Shown here: piece after piece, positions 2,714 to 8,661 of the stretch | Numbering within the stretch: the stretch's first letter is position 1 | How the letters are laid out: each line of letters begins with the position of its first letter | Virus record (IMG/VR): IMGVR_UViG_2713897161_000004 | Reading direction: 5' to 3' (one strand) | Length of the DNA stretch: 8,661 bases | From: a virus | Taxonomy: Duplodnaviria > Heunggongvirae > Uroviricota > Caudoviricetes | The notes under the pieces: generated by a model | The model's input: only the letters and a program-made list of their open reading frames with translations | Databases searched by the model: none | Told to the model about the DNA's origin: nothing | Program-made: the position numbers and the translations under genes

Positions 2714-2926
2714 ATGTCTAACAAAATGACTGGTTTAGTGAAATGGTTTAACCCTGAAAAAGGTTTTGGTTTCATCACGCCGAAAGATGGTAGCAAAGAT
2801 GTGTTTGTGCATTTCTCAGCTATTCAGAGCAACGATTTCAAAACGTTAACTGAGAATCAGGAAGTCGAATTTGGTATTGAGAACGGACCTAAAGGCCCTG
2901 CAGCTGTTCATGTAGTGGCACTTTGA
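2714..2926 (+). CDS. cspI: Cold-shock protein, CspA family (CspI-like), 70 aa
   Basis: ORF 2711..2926: (M)[70 protein letters not shown], with RNP1 (KGFGFI) and RNP2 (VFVHF) motifs. Start taken at the second ATG (2714) to give the family-typical MSNKMTG N-terminus; 2711 is also possible. SD AAGG at about 2701-2704. Confidence 0.85.
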
Positions 2927-3130
2927 GGTAGAAAATATTACAAACCATATTCACTTTAGATGCCCGTGTTGCCATGGTTCTCAGTATAGAACATCATCTT
3001 TTGATGTTTCTGACAGAAATCCTTTCGGGGCAAAATGTATCTTTTGTAAATCAATGATGATTACATTTGATAATATTTCACAATACTTAAATGTTAGCCA
3101 TCTGTCGTTAGATTTAAGAAAGTGAAAATG

Positions 3131-3155
3131 AAGGCTCCTTCGGGAGCTTTTTTGC
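3131..3155 (+). terminator. Rho-independent terminator: stem GCTCC / GGAGC with TTCG loop, followed by a six-T tract
   Basis: AAGGCTCC-TTCG-GGAGCTTTTTTGC at 3131-3155: GC-rich 5-bp stem extendable by A-U and G-U pairs, UUCG tetraloop, T-tract at 3148-3153. It lies about 205 nt downstream of the cspI stop and 43 nt upstream of the next ORF. Confidence 0.6.
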
Positions 3156-3197
3156 TTAGTGTCTAGTCGATGGATACTCACATATTACGGTAACATT

Positions 3198-3428
3198 ATG
3201 AAAAAAATAATAGTTTTTTTTAACTCTGAACCAGCAATGGTAGTGCCAGTGATGACCGGAGTTAACACCATCATGCGTGAATATCCAAATGGCGAAACAA
3301 CACACCTCACTGTAATGGCTGCAGGGTTTCCATCTCTGACCGGAGATCATAAAGTCATTTATGTAGCAGCGGATCGACATGTAACTTCAGAAGAAATTCT
3401 GGAAGCAGCAATGAGACTCTTGAATTGA
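3198..3428 (+). CDS. Small hypothetical protein (76 aa from ATG 3198; 51 aa if started at internal ATG 3273), in the position of a Qin-type cold-shock-associated small gene (ynfN-like)
   Basis: ORF 3159..3428 (the track uses a GTG start): MKKIIVFFNSEPAMVVPVMTGVNTIMREYPNGETTHLTVMAAGFPSLTGDHKVIYVAADRHVTSEEILEAAMRLLN. No family recognised from sequence; weak RBS for either start. Called on position and ORF integrity only. Confidence 0.45.
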   Translation: MKKIIVFFNSEPAMVVPVMTGVNTIMREYPNGETTHLTVMAAGFPSLTGDHKVIYVAADRHVTSEEILEAAMRLLN

Positions 3429-3600
3429 TTTGATTCTAATGCATTGATAATAAATGATAATCATCTTTATCTGTTTGTGTGAAATTTAGACCGTCGTATG
3501 TTGATTATTGCGATGTTTCATCTTATCTTTTATACGTTTGCTCCATATAATTGACACTACTGTGTACCAGGACAGTCATAACAGACTAAAAGAGGAAATG

Positions 3601-3774
3601 ATGAACATTGAAGAGTTAAAAACAAAAACAGAAGCAGATATTTCTGAATATATAACAAAAAAAATCATTGAGCTTAAGAAAAAGACCGGGAAAGAAGTTA
3701 CCAGTATCCAGTTTACTGCACGGGAAAAAATGACTGGTCTTGAAAGCTATGATATCAAGATTGATTTAATCTAG
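3601..3774 (+). CDS. gnsB: GnsA/GnsB family protein (GnsB-like), 57 aa
   Basis: Tail of ORF 3508..3774 from the ATG at 3601: MNIEELKTKTEADISEYITKKIIELKKKTGKEVTSIQFTAREKMTGLESYDIKIDLI, which matches the Gns family pattern (MNIEELK...GKEV...FTAREKMTGLESYD.KI). SD GAGG at 3592-3595. Confidence 0.75.
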   Translation: MNIEELKTKTEADISEYITKKIIELKKKTGKEVTSIQFTAREKMTGLESYDIKIDLI

Positions 3775-3836
3775 CATGTTTATAGTATTAGCATCAATTT
3801 CTCATCAGATGCTATTCAACAATACAAATTACCCAT

Positions 3837-3863
3837 AAACCTCGTTTTTACGGGGTTTTGTTA
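3837..3863 (+). terminator. Weak terminator-like hairpin downstream of the gnsB-like gene (AAACCTCG / CGGGGTTT stem, then TTTTGTT)
   Basis: AAACCTCG-TTTTTA-CGGGGTTTTGTT; the stem includes a G-U pair and partly uses the T-tract. Confidence 0.3.
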
Positions 3864-4069
3864 TATTTAAACATTACCGAATAGATATAAATCTCGATTG
3901 TCGATGGTATTGGTTGTGTGACAATACCTAGTCTTTCCGGTATGCCTGAAGAGAATACAAACGACAGATTATGTAAGGGAAACGCGCTGAAACTTTCACT
4001 CTTTCATGCTGAGTGATTTGACGTTATATTTTTAGCCGCAAGTGAAGAGCAAACGAATGGAGCGACAAA

Positions 4070-4276
4070 ATGCATAAAGATCAATACACTGATGCCCCGT
4101 CCCAGGAGCAGGTTCGTGTAAAAACTATGCTTAATAGCACCATTTCGATGGGTTACCCGGATGTTGTAATTGCATGTATAGAACATCAAGTATCTCTGGA
4201 AGCATTCAGGGCAATTGAGGCCGCGTTAGTAAAGCACGATAAGAATACGAAGGATTATTCCCTGGTGGTTGACTGA
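4070..4276 (+). CDS. Small hypothetical protein, 68 aa, immediately upstream of the cos region
   Basis: ORF 4070..4276: [68 protein letters not shown], preceded by SD GGAG with an 8-nt spacer. No transmembrane segment, no recognised motif. Confidence 0.5.
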
Positions 4277-4599
4277 TCACCATAACTGCTAACCATTCTG
4301 ACCATTTCACAAGTGACAGAGTCAATATCGTATTCTGTCACTGTAAGGCTAATACAGTACTGCAATTCAACTACAGCAATGCCTCGTATTTAGGTGAATT
4401 TACAATATCGTCCAGTTCGGATGCCGGCTGCATTTCTGAAGATAAGGCATTTCGGTTCGCGTATTTTCCCCTCATGCTCGTCAGTCCTGCGCGTAGTAAG
4501 AAACAGGACACTCACACTAATTTGTGTGGGCATGCTGTGATGTCCTTCTGAATTATCCCCATGCCATTATGTAAAGCTCTGTTTCAGATGCTCGTCACG

Positions 4600-4730
4600 G
4601 TTGTCAGGCTGTCGGGTCCTCCCAGTGGGGGTCCCTGCCACGGGGCGGGAGCGTCGCGGAAAAAGGCTAGTTTTTGAAATTTTATTCGTCATCACCACTA
4701 CTGTAATTGATTGATATTACAGTTGTTTTA
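4600..4730. other. Lambda-like cos site: cosN candidate 4643-4654 (GGGCGGGAGCGT), with cosB-like region downstream containing an IHF-consensus match and an inverted repeat
   Basis: Window has ...CCACG GGGCGGGAGCGT CGCGG AAAAAGGCTAGTTTTTGAAATTTTATTCGTCAT...; phage lambda has ...ACG GGGCGGCGACCT CGCGG GTTTTCGCTATTTATGAAAATTTT...CGTCAT... The minus strand at 4703-4715 reads TATCAATCAATTA (fits WATCAANNNNTTR). 7-bp inverted repeat CTGTAAT/ATTACAG at 4700-4721. The site is about 170 bp upstream of the terminase small subunit, as in lambda. Confidence 0.6.
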
Positions 4731-4828
4731 TTTTTATGGTGTCGATTCTGATTGTTTTTTGTTCATCACTAACACCGTTTGCCTAAAGTTGTTCGCAAGA
4801 TGCATGTTTAAAACATTCTGGAGCGGGT

Positions 4829-5323
4829 ATGGATCGAGAGTTAAAAAATCTGACGCTGAATATCAGTCAACTGGCGGCATTGTCAGGTGTACATCGCCAG
4901 ACTGCTGCGGCAAGGCTGCAAAATCTACCCGTTGCAGGGGGGCATGAAAGCAACCTCAAGCTTTATCGGGTGGTTGATATTGTGTCGGCATTTCTGGCAT
5001 TACCACCGCCGGTTGCAGAAGGCGAAATGGACGCGCATGAGCGCAAAGCCTGGTATCAGTCTGAACGTGAGCGTCTTAAGTTCGAACAGGAAACGGCACA
5101 ACTCATTCCGGCCAGTGATGTCAGACGGGAGTTTGCCATCTGGGCAAAAGCGGTCGTGCAGGTGCTGGAGACATTACCGGATATTCTTGAACGTGACTGC
5201 GGTCTGCAGCCTGACGCTGTGAGCCGTGTTCAGTCCATTATTGATGATCTGCGCGATCAGATAGCCCTGCGGGTGACTGAAGCAGGTGCGGATGATGAGG
5301 AGGAATTACAGCAGGAGGAGTAA
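4829..5323 (+). CDS. Phage terminase small subunit (lambda Nu1-like DNA packaging protein), 164 aa
   Basis: ORF 4829..5323: N-terminal HTH-like segment (LTLNISQLAALSGVHRQTAAARLQNLP) comparable to the Nu1 N-terminus, acidic C-terminal tail, SD GGAG at 4819-4822. Stop TAA overlaps the large-subunit ATG as TAATG (5321-5325). Confidence 0.75.
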   Translation: MDRELKNLTLNISQLAALSGVHRQTAAARLQNLPVAGGHESNLKLYRVVDIVSAFLALPPPVAEGEMDAHERKAWYQSERERLKFEQETAQLIPASDVRREFAIWAKAVVQVLETLPDILERDCGLQPDAVSRVQSIIDDLRDQIALRVTEAGADDEEELQQEE

Positions 5324-6807
5324 TGCTGAATCAGGAAACCGCAAAGGCAGCACGAACCGATTCAGGTTATATCCTTCGCGCACCGAGACGAATGCGGGTT
5401 GCTGATGCCGTTGCTCAGTATATGCGGGTGCCCATGGGGGCAGGGAACTCAGTCCCGTGGGATCCGCTGGTGGCACCGTATGTTATTGAGCCTATGAACT
5501 GCCTGGCCTCGCGTGAATACGACGCAGTGATATTTGTTGGCCCGGCACGAACCGGCAAGACTATCGGCCTGATTGACGGCTGGGTGATTTACAACGTGAT
5601 TTGCGATCCTGCTGATATGCTGATCATTCAGATGACGGAGGAAAAAGCCCGCGAACACTCCAAAAAACGACTCGCCAGAACGTTTCGCGTCAGCCCGGAA
5701 GTGGTCAGTCGCCTGAGTCCGAACAAAAATGACAACAACGTTTATGACAGAACATTCCTTGCTGGCAACTACCTGAAAATCGGCTGGCCGTCAGTCAATA
5801 TCATGTCTTCATCAGATTATAAATGCGTGGCGCTGACGGATTATGACCGTTTTCCGGAAGATATTGATGGTGAGGGGGATGCCTTCTCTCTTGCCTCAAA
5901 ACGTACCACCACATTTATGTCCAGTGGTATGACGCTGGTGGAGAGTTCCCCCGGCAGGGATGTGAAGGATGTGAAATGGCGACGGACTTCACCGCATGAG
6001 GCTCCACCAACCACGGGGATCCTGTCGCTCTATAACCGTGGCGATCGCCGTCGCTGGTACTGGCCCTGTCCACACTGTGGTGAGTATTTTCAGCCCTGCG
6101 GCGATGTGGTTGCTGGTTTCCGTGATATTGCCGATCCTGTGCTGGCAAGTGAGGCGGCTTATATTCAGTGTCCTTCCTGTTCAGGACGGATTTTGCCTGA
6201 ACAAAAACGCGAGCTGAACGGACGTGGGGTCTGGTTACGGGATGGTGAATCCATCAATGCAGATGGCAGTCGTTATGGTGATCCCCGGCGTTCACGTATT
6301 GCGTCATTCTGGATGGAGGGTCCGGCAGCTGCTTATCAGACACTCTCGCAACTCGTTTACAAGCTGCTTACTGCAGAACAGGAATACGAGACAACCGGAA
6401 GTGAAGAGACACTCAAGACGGTTATCAATACCGACTGGGGATTACCTTATCTTCCCCGCGCCAGCATGGAGCAACGAAAAAGTGAATTGCTTGAGCAGCG
6501 GGCAGAGCCAGTTCCTTCCCGCAGTGTGCCGGATGGCGTTAATTTCCTTGTGGCGACAGTGGATGTGCAGGCGGGACGTCATCGCCGTTTTGTGGTTCAG
6601 GTAACGGGCTATGGCAGCCGTGGCGAACGCTGGATTATTGATCGTTACAACATCACGCAGTCATTGCGCGGTGACAGCGACGGGGAGAGCCAGCGAATTG
6701 ATCCGGCCAGCTACCGGAGTCGGAAGTTGCCGGACCCTGCAGATGAAGGCGCATTACAGAAATGGAGGTCTGTTCTACCGTTCTTCAAGAGATGGCTATG
6801 GTTTTGA
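5323..6807 (+). CDS. Phage terminase large subunit, lambda GpA family, C-terminally truncated (494 codons versus about 640 in lambda gpA)
   Basis: ORF 5323..6807: Walker A P-loop GPARTGKT, Cys cluster [10 protein letters not shown]...CPSCSG (cf. lambda ACPHCGEEQY), and [32 protein letters not shown] (cf. lambda IDSQLDRYEMRVWGWGPGEESWLIDRQII). The ORF ends about 60 codons after this motif with an unrelated tail (...[16 protein letters not shown]), and tail-fibre sequence follows. Confidence 0.85.
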
Positions 6808-7378
6808 GGAAGACTGGGCAGAAGTTTATACCTCGAAAAATCTTCCACCAGAAAGCTACCCAGTCGGCGCACCAATCCCGTGGCCATCAGATACCGTTCC
6901 GTCTGGTTATGCCCTGATGCAGGGGCAGACTTTTGACAAATCTGCCTACCCGAAACTTGCTGCCGCTTATCCGTCAGGCGTGATCCCTGATTTGCGTGGC
7001 TGGACGATTAAGGGCAAGCCCGCCAGTGGTCGAGCCATATTGTCTCAGGAACAGGACGGCATTAAATCGCACACCCACAGCGCCAGCGCATCCAGTACGG
7101 ATTTGGGTACGAAAACCACATCGTCGTTTGATTACGGCACTAAATCCACGAATAACACCGGGGCGCATACCCATAGTGTTAGCGGTACGGCTGCTTCAGC
7201 CGGTGCACATACCCATTCGATGACATTTGTTTCAGGTGGTTCCAGTGGTGCTCCGGGAAGTGGAGCATCTGATTATTCTAAATACAGTGTTAACACTTCT
7301 TCTGCAGGCGCTCATACGCACTCTGTATTCTTGCTACGGAACATTTCAGTGACTGGGGATATTATGAGGTCAACTTAA
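6743..7378 (+). pseudogene. Side tail fibre protein (lambda Stf-like) C-terminal fragment; supported homologous core about 6857-7326
   Basis: Frame of ORF 6611..7378: [121 protein letters not shown]..., cf. lambda Stf [96 protein letters not shown]...[11 protein letters not shown]. No N-terminal part; ends in out-of-frame ydfI-like sequence ([16 protein letters not shown]). Confidence 0.75.
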
Positions 7379-8661
7379 TCGGCGGCGAACAGCAAATTGC
7401 CGATTTACAACAGCAAGATAATCTTTATACCGTTGCGGAAATGTCGGCCGACGCGTGGACGGCTCGCGTCGTTGGCGTCGTTAAAAAAGCCTTGCACGTA
7501 CAAATAGATGGCTTAGAAACCGTGCTGGCTGCGATGTGTGAACCGCAAATTGCGATTGTCTCTCTGACAATCACCGAAAAAGGGTATTTCCACTCTCCGG
7601 CGACCGGACAGTTAATGCTCGATCACCCGATGGTCGCTGCCGACGTGCAAAATCCCCACCAGCCGAAAACAGCAACAGGGGTGATTGTTGAGGCGCTGGC
7701 TCGCCGTAAAGCGGCAGGACTTCCCGCATTTACCGTCATGTCATGTGACAACATGCCAGAAAACGGTCATGTTATGCGTGACGTTGTCACTTCCTACGCA
7801 CAAGCCGTTGATGTAAAACTGGCACAATGGATCGAAGATAACGTGACTTTCCCATCAACAATGGTGGACCGTATTGTGCCCGCAGTGACAGAGGATACGC
7901 TGGCGAAAATCGAACAACTTACCGGTGTGGGCGATCCTGCGGGCGTTGCCTGTGAACCTTTCCGCCAGTGGGTAATAGAAGATAACTTTGTTGCCGGACG
8001 TCCGGAATGGGAAAAAGCGGGAGCCGAACTGGTTAGCGATGTGCTGCCTTATGAAGAGATGAAGTTGCGCATGCTCAACGGCAGTCATTCATTCCTGGCG
8101 TATCTGGGGTATCTTGCAGGATATCAGCACATTAATGACTGTATGGAAGATGAACAATATCGTTATGCGGCGTATGGCTTGATGTTGCAGGAACAAGCGC
8201 CGACGTTGAAAGTGCAGGGCGTTGATTTGCAAGATTACGCTAACCGATTAATTGCACGCTATAGCAACCCGGCGTTACGTCATCGAACCTGGCAGATTGC
8301 GATGGATGGTAGCCAGAAATTGCCACAGCGGATGTTGGATTCTGTTCGCTGGCATCTGGCGCATGACAGCAAGTTCGATCTGCTGGCGCTGGGCGTCGCG
8401 GGTTGGATGCGTTATGTCGGTGGTGTTGATGAACAGGGAAATCCGATAGAAATCAGTGACCCACTGTTACCTGTTATTCAGAAGGCTGTACAAAGTAGTG
8501 ACGAAGGGAAAGCGCGCGTCCAGTCATTGCTGGCGATTAAGGCGATCTTTGGTGATGATTTGCCAGACAATAGTTTGTTTACTGCAAGAGTGACGGAAAC
8601 GTACTTGTCTTTATTAGCGCATGGCGCGAAAGCGACCGTGGCAAAATATTCCGTGAAGTAA
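7327..8661 (+). pseudogene. ydfI: Mannitol dehydrogenase family oxidoreductase (YdfI/UxuB-like), 5'-truncated: homology begins in-frame at about 7327, first available start is ATG 7441 (406-aa ORF), C-terminus complete
   Basis: ORF 7441..8661; in-frame upstream codons 7327-7440 read [38 protein letters not shown] with no start codon, and a TAA at 7291-7293 closes the frame. This matches the family region after the N-terminal NAD-binding motif (cf. UxuB ...DWGICEVNL...LYTVAE), so the Rossmann GxGxFxRAH segment is absent. Confidence 0.75.

Follow-up and report, generated by a model that had tools for sequence, protein, structure and literature searches.

A putative lambda-type cos in a Qin-type cryptic prophage of Escherichia coli and its relation to the cos sites of mEp460, Gifsy and cdtI

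Lambda-like cos sites and the host prophage

In phage lambda, the cos lies after the lysis and moron genes and 190 bp before the small terminase gene; its cosB part carries three R boxes of consensus CGTTTCC (at 50, ~108 and ~151), of which the middle one is inverted and the first two are separated by an IHF site. The lambda-like phages follow a rule for cosN, in which the cohesive end's left half, the CG flanks and cosQ remain conserved and positions 7-12 are free to vary, and the right half of the end does vary naturally among these phages (PMC4669245). Gifsy-1 has been described as possessing cohesive ends similar to lambda's and a cosB that contains three R sequences as well as an IHF site (PMC4669245, PMC9026076); for this phage, the combination of the lambda cosB architecture with a DUF1441-type small terminase subunit (TerS) has thus already been stated in the literature. 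For mEp213/LLS, a 12-nt overhang, GGGCGGCGCGCT, was inferred by Feiss and colleagues (PMC12315714). Among the closer relatives of the locus considered here, phi458 and Tritos form plaques and virions, and the published descriptions of both phages make no mention of termini or of a cos.

Here, we analyze a window of 8,661 nucleotides (the whole stretch of DNA under study) whose host element is a Qin-type cryptic prophage of E. coli. Judged from its sequence, the segment at 4614-4770 reads as a complete lambda-type cos, composed of cosQ, cosN, an I2-like segment and cosB, and it is very probably the cos of a lambdoid phage of the mEp460/Gifsy/cdtI packaging class that has survived in this remnant. 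It is an ordinary, already familiar type of cos, with nothing new about it.

The genes of the element run in the order lysis genes, morons, cos, TerS, a stump of the large terminase subunit (TerL), a tail-fibre fragment and ydfI. From position 769 on, the window is identical to strain ET881, whose RefSeq annotation supplies the content of the plus-strand moron block at 2714-4276 (cspI, ynfQ, ynfN, gnsB and a ybcW-like gene); the Pfam GnsAB_toxin domain is found within this block and the ybcW-like gene matches phrog_657. A preliminary description of this DNA had located the moron island at the right end of the phage genome, and the gene order bears this out: the block is situated between the lysis genes and the cos, with the cos following the lysis and moron genes as it does in lambda, and in Tritos the right map end likewise has gnsB, ybcV and ybcW just before it. 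The prophage itself has undergone considerable decay; rrrQ is frameshifted, an IS26 is inserted 27 bp before the holin gene, the head and tail genes have all been deleted and most of the nuclease domain is missing from TerL. The Qin prophage of K-12 occupies the same chromosomal locus, next to ydfI/ydfJ, it has the same order of lysis and moron genes (essQ, ydfR, rrrQ, rzpQ, cspI, ynfQ, ynfN, gnsB), and it too has a packaging gene stump fused to a tail fibre gene; the deletion in the window is, however, a different one that took ydfJ and the beginning of ydfI as well.

The cosQ-cosN-I2 core

The packaging-termination signal cosQ, GGGTCCT, is found on the plus strand at 4614-4620, where it matches lambda cosQ (lambda 48473-48479) in 7/7 positions. 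This is its single occurrence in the window, and it stands 22 bp before the predicted nick as compared with 23 bp in lambda. The motif is kept in mEp460, phi458, 569R4, PhiR40_1, cdtI, Tritos, CP-1639, VT1-Sakai and mEp213, and the 22-bp spacing is common to mEp460, phi458, 569R4, PhiR40_1, cdtI and mEp213; the Salmonella and Citrobacter members of the Gifsy class differ in having AGGTACT at this position. The 16-bp cosN (4641-4656), CG-GGGCGGGAGCGT-CG, agrees with lambda cosN at 12/16 positions. Its two-fold symmetry involves 8/16 positions, versus 10/16 in lambda, and the CG dinucleotides beside both nick sites are kept, as they are in lambda. By homology, the top strand would be nicked at 4642/4643 and the bottom strand at 4654/4655, which would leave a 12-nt 5' cohesive end, GGGCGGGAGCGT (4643-4654, plus strand), identical to that of lambda in 8/12 positions; positions 1-6 are the same and the differences, at 7, 8, 9 and 11, are all in the right half, a pattern of variation that fits the published lambda-like rule (PMC4669245). 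The I2-like segment between cosN and cosB, CGCGGAAAAAGGCTAGTTTTTGAAATTTTA (4655-4684, plus strand), shares 19/33 positions with lambda over +13 to +45 (offsets being counted from 4643) and is nearly invariant across the DUF1441-terminase phages. When the 12-mer GGGCGGGAGCGT was used to search the literature, the single match was to an unrelated paper on a mammalian promoter.

The similarity to lambda is real but short and ungapped, and for this reason a gapped alignment was replaced by an ungapped probe scan. The gapped local alignment of 4560-4830 with lambda 48400-48502 plus 1-200 gave a score of 24, versus 18.7 +/- 2.6 for shuffles, and this score was reached by 19/500 shuffles. The ungapped lambda probe (-5 to +45), applied to both strands of the window, found a unique best match at 4638, with a score of 30/50 (z = 5.6; runner-up 24). 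Past +45 the identity falls to chance level (36/141 over +46 to +190), and the lambda resemblance is thus confined to cosQ, cosN and I2. The earlier claim that 4643-4654 and its flanks closely resemble lambda cosN is upheld by this unique match, and also by the collinearity of cosQ, the CG flanks and I2, which is not what a short GC-rich string devoid of flanking collinearity would have produced.

The core is also found in phages that are evidently functional. The window, mEp460, phi458, 569R4 and PhiR40_1 have the cosQ-cosN core in common, and the whole of cosQ-cosN-I2 is identical or nearly so in mEp460, phi458, cdtI, Tritos and HannyBb, with a G at overhang position 12 in the mEp460 reference. 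These five phages, along with Ayreon, are complete and plaque-forming, whereas the window has a truncated TerL and has lost its structural genes. The cdtI and Tritos records start at GGGCGGGAGCGT, the equivalent of 4643, and end in ...GCCACG, the equivalent of 4642; their starts may have been set by analogy with lambda. The proposal that the packaging origin lies upstream of the terminase genes accords with this junction, which is situated 186 bp before the TerS gene.

It is conceivable that the cos is functional but is cut unlike that of lambda, with another overhang length or other nicks, in which case the 12-nt GGGCGGGAGCGT would be wrong in detail. We consider this quite unlikely. TerL, which is 82% identical to the TerL of cdtI, is 24% identical to lambda gpA (E = 4e-15); Gifsy-2 has 14 nt, not 12, between the conserved CACG and CGCGG, and a 12-nt overhang is therefore not guaranteed throughout the class; and in the mEp460_4F5 assembly the break falls 5 nt leftward of the predicted nick, with 3 nt missing from within the putative overhang. 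Lambda has, however, exactly these CG flanks, this GGGCGG left half and this 12-bp spacing, the same features are found in the LLS/mEp213 cos with its inferred 12-nt overhang (PMC12315714), and the cdtI and Tritos records are cut exactly at the lambda-equivalent position.

The terminase genes and the organization of cosB

The gene that follows the cos (4829-5323, plus strand; 186 bp away, versus 190 bp in lambda) encodes an apparently intact TerS of 164 aa, which matches Pfam DUF1441 (2.4e-42) and phrog_141, a terminase small subunit family (1e-73), and which is ~99% (98.8-99.4%) identical to the TerS of mEp460, phi458, 569R4 and Ayreon. BLASTP detected zero similarity between this protein and Nu1 and the Phage_Nu1 profile was unmatched; a profile comparison of the two (hhalign) was collinear but no more than weakly suggestive, with E = 0.006 and a probability of 6%. 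A PDB sequence search with TerS returned nothing relevant, and in a single-sequence AlphaFold2 model the pLDDT is below 50 across the N-terminal 36 residues. Since TerS is without BLAST similarity to Nu1, its mode of binding is proposed by analogy; and since it is a DUF1441 protein and not a Nu1, the cosB is analogous, rather than homologous, to that of lambda. Next comes the GpA-family TerL gene (5323-6718, plus strand), which is truncated, with some 464 of roughly 700 codons left. Its product retains a complete GpA_ATPase domain (8e-72) and a partial GpA_nuclease (1.3e-34, profile positions 1-115 of 294); homology to phage TerL stops at 6718, cutting off the protein at residue ~464, and RefSeq lists the gene in ET881 as a pseudogene. 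The stump is fused to an internal fragment of a side tail fibre gene (6712-7226, plus strand) that is 97% identical to phages 2H10 and ev099, contains the Pfam domains Collar and Phage_fiber, and is a partial gene according to RefSeq.

The cosB segment has three predicted TerS boxes of consensus TTCRWCAYY, versus CGTTTCC in lambda. The R3 equivalent is TTCGTCATCACC (4685-4696, plus strand; TCRWCAYY matches at 4686 and 4689), the R2 equivalent is the inverted ATCGACACC (4738-4746, minus strand) and the R1 equivalent is TTCATCACT (4762-4770, plus strand), the latter two being matches to the box consensus; TCRWCAYY has 12 matches in the window, 4 of them within 85 bp of cosB. Between the first two boxes there is an IHF consensus site, TATCAATCAATTA (4704-4716, minus strand), which is equivalent to lambda I1 and exactly matches WATCAANNNNTTR, a consensus with 2 matches in the whole window. 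The arrangement of three boxes, the middle one inverted and the first two flanking an IHF site, is that of lambda, but the boxes are packed closer (+43, +96 and +120).

The preliminary description had pointed to an IHF match, a CTGTAAT/ATTACAG inverted repeat and a CGTCAT motif as cosB-like features. All three are present, although the cosB is not lambda-like in sequence and the latter two now have a different reading. The inverted repeat ACTACTGTAAT / ATTACAGTTGT surrounds the IHF site, with 11-nt arms (4697-4707 and 4716-4726) that are 91% complementary; it is kept in the closest relatives only and is hence probably incidental to the IHF site, the conserved element within it being the IHF core. 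CGTCAT, at 4687-4692, is inside the R3-equivalent box, whereas in lambda this string is outside R3.

This layout was compared across 10 phages with a TerS sharing 41-99% identity with that of the window. An exact-match R3 box is found at +43 to +52 in 7/10 of these DUF1441-TerS phages, with near-matches at +43 to +52 in two more (CP-1639 and PhiR40_1); an IHF match with at most one mismatch is present on the same strand at +61 to +64 in 9/10, including cdtI, and in Gifsy-2 the match is at +74 on the opposite strand; the inverted R2 box is at +95 to +99 in 8/10 and the forward R1 box at +119 to +124 in 9/10. In most of these relatives, R3(+), IHF, R2(-) and R1(+) are thus found again with almost constant offsets. 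From cosB through TerS, mEp460, phi458 and 569R4 are 94-99% identical to the window and PhiR40_1 about 86%; in phi458 the R3, R2 and R1 boxes are identical and the IHF site has one different base, in its unspecified spacer. In cdtI, Tritos and HannyBb, by contrast, homology to the window stops at about 4676 (+34), the DUF1441 TerS is 42% identical to the window's and the cosB is without TCRWCAYY boxes. Gifsy-1/Gifsy-2, Fels-1, mEp213/LLS and VT1-Sakai encode a TerS of the same family (41-65% identity) and have the same cos layout and R3-IHF-R2-R1 offsets; the right half of their overhang and their exact R boxes differ from those of the window, which implies different packaging specificities. 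In sum, the window has the cosN end, the CG flanks and symmetry, the cosQ, the cosB layout and the adjacent GpA-family TerL of a lambda-like cos; the Phage_Nu1 TerS and CGTTTCC R sequences of lambda's own specificity class are absent, and the TerS and cosB boxes, which are the same as those of mEp460 and phi458, place it in the specificity class of these two phages.

In a prophage that is otherwise so heavily degraded, with its rrrQ frameshift, TerL truncation and IS26, the cos could itself be a relic, a look-alike in which mutations, for example in the cosQ-cosN spacer, block cleavage even by a matching helper terminase. Indeed, the window departs from the consensus of the functional phages at five positions of the spacer between cosQ and the nick (4624 and 4631-4634) and also at 4683, 4708-4709, 4726-4727 and 4749. 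We nevertheless regard this reading as decidedly unlikely, since none of these differences is within cosQ, the 16-bp cosN, I2, the R boxes or the IHF core, since the plaque-forming Tritos also varies in the same spacer (GGGGGCCCCTGCC), and since the identical 226-bp cos is found in other genomes. Least credible of all is a chance GC-rich string in what would be an intergenic spacer, a promoter or the small ORFs annotated in some phage records: the gapped lambda alignment is barely above shuffles, weak sigma-70-like matches are found at 4679-4707 (minus strand) and 4711-4740 (plus strand) and hypothetical CDSs overlap the cos in the 569R4 and PhiR40_1 records, but the lambda probe has its unique best match here with cosQ at the right distance, two phage genome records have this very junction as their ends, the positions of the R/IHF elements are conserved in distant relatives and the ORFs are not, the promoter-like matches are near the shuffle expectation (3 versus 1.2 +/- 1.2, with promoter and terminator scans at chance level) and Rfam has zero family matches in the cos region.

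Packaging by a helper phage, and the distribution of the site

If the surviving cos of an mEp460-type phage operates on the lambda model, then in the intact phage dimers of the DUF1441 TerS would bind R3 and the inverted R2 across an IHF-induced bend, with R1 as a third TerS box, and the bound TerS would place the GpA-family TerL on cosN. TerL would then introduce nicks 12 bp apart, one in the top strand between CG and GGGC and the other in the bottom strand after GCGT, to generate the 5' overhangs GGGCGGGAGCGT. The DNA would be pumped rightwards into the prohead, TerS gene first, and packaging would stop at the next cos, a step requiring cosQ, cosN and I2.

In the present remnant the site appears to be intact in sequence but inert by itself; a terminase able to act on it could come only from a phage, infecting or co-resident, that shares its cosB specificity. 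The candidate helpers are mEp460, phi458 and Ayreon, plaque-forming phages with the same TerS (99% identical), of which mEp460 and phi458 also have the same cos. The preliminary description had raised the idea that a defective terminase might still leave the site open to packaging in trans. TerL is indeed defective, the cos looks intact, and packaging by a helper phage could probably begin at it; the completion of particles is another matter. To complete a particle, a terminase of the lambda type requires a second cos. In ET881 there is none within 50 kb downstream, which makes mature particles unlikely.

A role for such an orphan cos, either as an initiation site from which an mEp460-type phage packages the adjacent chromosome or as a decoy for an invader's terminase, seems to us very unlikely, and the missing downstream cos argues against mature transducing particles. 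Were it an initiation site, then ydfI, mar, lsr and hipBA would be packaged, in a cos-driven transduction of the lateral type or in doc-like particles; were it a decoy, the invader's terminase would be titrated or misdirected and the phage yield would be lowered.

Beyond annotation, the importance of the site is slight. It fixes the origin of the virion map for a Qin-type remnant, it places the morons, cold-shock and gnsB, at the right end of the phage, and its layout with a DUF1441 protein confirms the lambda cosB architecture in a TerS family that has no detectable sequence similarity to Nu1. It also reveals that the prophages of the Qin locus differ in packaging module by strain: in K-12 Qin the cos is truly of the lambda type (GGGCGGCGACCT, the R boxes being those of lambda) and is accompanied by the Nu1 homologue nohA, whereas the module in the window is of the mEp460/DUF1441 type. 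The cos is present in 2113/5426 complete E. coli genomes, and a scan of IMG/VR with the exact cosQ-cosN pattern retrieved 7 contigs.

The lambda-like cosQ, cosN and I2

The preliminary description had noted that GGGCGGGAGCGT, located at 4643-4654, and its flanks closely resemble the cohesive-end region of lambda. Aligned locally with gaps, 4560-4830 and lambda 48400-48502 plus 1-200 (junction sequence taken from NC_001416) match only weakly; the score of 24 lies barely above that of shuffled sequences (18.7 +/- 2.6) and was reached by 19 of 500 shuffles. The ungapped, collinear match, however, is clear and bears out the resemblance: a lambda probe from -5 to +45, scanned along both strands of the whole window, has its single best match at 4638, which scores 30/50 (z = 5.6), the runner-up scoring 24. 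Moreover, the 7-bp lambda cosQ, GGGTCCT, has one exact occurrence in the window, at 4614-4620, which is 22 bp from the predicted nick (4642|4643, +1 being 4643) versus 23 bp in lambda.

In register, the 16-bp cosN (CG, the 12-nt end and CG) agrees with lambda at 12 of 16 positions and the end itself at 8 of 12, the mismatches all falling at positions 7, 8, 9 and 11. This variation follows the pattern described by Feiss and colleagues for natural lambda-like cos sites, which vary at end positions 7-12, with Gifsy-1 differing at 8, 9 and 11 (PMC4669245). Identity is 19/33 from +13 to +45, and from +46 to +190 it is at chance level (36/141). As judged from sequence, the similarity to lambda is short yet collinear across the predicted cosQ, spacer, cosN and I2, a collinearity that rules out its being only a GC-rich string.

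The same junction was found in phage records by megablast with 4300-5400 as the query. Both the cdtI (AB285204) and the Tritos (OV696610) record open with GGGCGGGAGCGTCGCGGAAAAAGGCTAGTTTTT and close with ...CTGCCACG, so that their origins coincide exactly with 4642|4643; these are record coordinates, possibly set by analogy with lambda, and the Tritos paper contains no statement of their basis. The nick positions are thus predictions from homology and from record coordinates of uncertain basis. The same cosQ-cosN core is present in mEp460, phi458 and 569R4 (94-99% identical to the window across cosB and the small terminase subunit, TerS) and in PhiR40_1 (about 86%); the TerS of Ayreon is that of the window (99.4% identical), and both phi458 and Tritos are plaque-forming siphoviruses. 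For mEp213/LLS, which has the same TerS family, the proposed overhang is the 12-nt GGGCGGCGCGCT, a proposal to which M. Feiss contributed (PMC12315714). A 226-bp query spanning cos matches 2113 of 5426 complete E. coli genomes, 1464 of them at a coverage of at least 80%. The site is nothing new in kind: published phages have the identical sequence, and so do over a thousand E. coli genomes.

In mEp460_4F5 (comparison sequences L020, 1-30, and L021, 300-328) the assembly breaks 5 nt left of the predicted nick and 3 nt (TCG) are missing inside the putative cohesive end, and in the mEp460 reference (L008, 1051) overhang position 12 is G, not T. These oddities seem to reflect either faulty assembly where the DNA physically ends or genuine polymorphism.

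A cosB of the DUF1441 terminase phages

The TerS of the window belongs to the DUF1441 (phrog_141) family and not to Phage_Nu1; BLAST shows no similarity between it and Nu1, the TerS of lambda, and a profile-profile comparison of the two is collinear without being significant (E = 0.006, probability 6%). Consistent with this non-Nu1 TerS, sequence similarity to lambda cosB is absent. A tblastn search with TerS gave 58 phage records at 30-99% identity, and the TerS-upstream regions of Chris1, CP-1639, VT1-Sakai, Gifsy-2, Fels-1 and mEp213 were lined up with those of the window, phi458, 569R4, PhiR40_1, cdtI and lambda. In nearly all the DUF1441 phages compared, cosQ is followed by CACG, about 12 nt, CGCGG(A/G)AA..GGC..TTTTT and a forward box TTCRWCAYY, and then by the IHF core TTGAT, an inverted box, a T-rich run and a forward box. 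With box offsets defined by exact TCRWCAYY matches, the family has an R3-like box at +43 to +52 (plus strand; window 4685-4696), an IHF site at +61 to +64 (minus; 4704-4716), an R2-like box at +95 to +99 (minus; 4738-4746) and an R1-like box at +119 to +124 (plus; 4762-4770); the 85-bp cosB stretch holds 4 of the 12 TCRWCAYY matches of the entire window (8661 bp). Lambda cosB has the design R3-I1-R2-R1 (PMC9026076), and the cosB of the window, with its predicted TerS and IHF sites, is that design with different boxes.

The cosB-like features first proposed fared unequally. The IHF-consensus match is exact (WATCAANNNNTTR, 4704-4716, minus strand). The CGTCAT motif is present, but belongs to the R3-like box. 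The inverted repeat is real, its arms (4697-4707 and 4716-4726) flanking the IHF site on both sides; however, it is conserved among the closest relatives only, and therefore the IHF core is treated as the functional element.

The TerS proteins of cdtI, Tritos and HannyBb are only 42% identical to that of the window, and the sequence these phages have in common with it ends at about 4676 (+34), past which their cosB differs (no TCRWCAYY-type boxes, IHF match at the same offset). A mosaic joint thus marks the boundary between the module that TerL (large subunit) would recognise, cosQ-cosN-I2, and the one that TerS would recognise, cosB. HannyBb, with its cdtI-type TerS, is 100% identical to window 4300-4676, and phi458 and mEp460 are 98% identical to 4610-5400; the two kinds of stretch overlap only in the 67-bp cosQ-cosN-I2 core, 4610-4676. 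Because these 67 bp are the only stretch common to both, the core appears to act as a homology patch for the exchange of right-end and left-end modules.

On every sequence-level test applied, the site is a predicted lambda-like cos, but it falls outside lambda's own specificity class, defined by a Nu1 TerS together with R boxes of the lambda type. It groups with the mEp460/phi458 class, which sits inside a wider DUF1441-terminase group (Gifsy, Fels-1, mEp213, VT1-Sakai). Gifsy-2 (L015, 405-450) has 14 nt, not 12, between the conserved CACG and CGCGG (GGTGGCTTCGGGCT), and Salmonella and Citrobacter members (Chris1, L012; Fels-1, L016) have AGGTACT in place of the cosQ GGGTCCT of the E. coli phages; this terminase class may thus be variable in the length of its overhang and in its cosQ. 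At the same locus, K-12 Qin (L022, 8400-8600, minus strand) has an almost perfect lambda cos, with GGGTCCT, GGGCGGCGACCT and lambda-type R boxes, upstream of the Nu1 homologue nohA, whereas the window has the mEp460/phi458-class module; the packaging module of Qin-locus prophages thus differs between strains.

A defective Qin-type prophage and possible packaging in trans

The window holds a cryptic prophage of Qin type, located at ydfI/ydfJ. E. coli ET881 has a chromosomal stretch that is 100% identical to the window from 769 onward; the RefSeq annotation of this stretch, converted to window positions, gives the holin gene essD (796-1011), ydfR (1016-1327), a frameshifted lysozyme gene rrrQ (1324-1856), rzpQ (1853-2350), cspI (2714-2926), ynfQ (2937-3125), ynfN (3198-3428), gnsB (3601-3774), a ybcW-like ORF (4070-4276), the DUF1441 protein, TerS (4829-5323), a C-terminally truncated TerL (from 5323), a tail-protein fragment and the 5'-truncated host gene ydfI (7327-8661).

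The possibility that the terminase is defective is borne out for TerL, in which the GpA ATPase domain is complete and the GpA nuclease domain is mostly lost (profile positions 1-115 of 294 remain). Over residues 21-464 this protein and cdtI TerL share 82% identity, with no match thereafter; identity to lambda gpA is 24%. TerS is full length (164 aa) and 99% identical to that of active phages; in its single-sequence AlphaFold2 model, pLDDT stays below 50 over the first 36 residues. At the nucleotide level, homology to phage TerL runs to 6718 and homology to side tail fibre genes starts at 6712; the 7 bp of overlap (6712-6718) mark a deletion joint. At a second joint, about 7226-7327, the fibre fragment is fused to ydfI, whose 5' end is missing; compared with K-12, the element lacks ydfJ and the other Qin genes of the ydfI side. 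No portal, head or tail gene is left, and the element is unable to cut its own DNA or to package it.

The suggested packaging in trans is plausible in part. All recognisable cos sub-sites are intact, the few differences from functional phages lying between the boxes and in the cosQ-cosN spacer, where Tritos likewise varies; initiation by a helper of matching cosB specificity is plausible on these sequences. Completion of a chromosome by lambda-type terminases, however, needs a downstream cosQ-cosN (PMC4669245). Packaging would proceed rightwards through TerS into ydfI and then the mar, lsr and hipBA region, and in ET881 neither a prophage nor a second cosN-like site occurs within the next 50 kb downstream. 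The product, as we assume from lambda biology, would be an unfinished, single-cos filled head, not a transducing particle.

An IS26-type element ends at 768: positions 1-768 encode a DDE_Tnp_IS240 transposase on the minus strand (240-aa ORF) and finish with a terminal inverted repeat, TTTGCAACAGTGCC (755-768), only 27 bp before essD. Because ET881, identical otherwise, has different DNA there, this copy of the prophage has had its late-promoter region replaced. In the window rrrQ reads as two ORFs that overlap, 1324-1524 and 1467-1856; RefSeq flags the gene as frameshifted in the identical ET881 sequence. A match to the cspA thermoregulator (Rfam, 111 bits, E = 2e-28) at 2567-2972 spans the leader and coding region of cspI, a prophage cold-shock gene.
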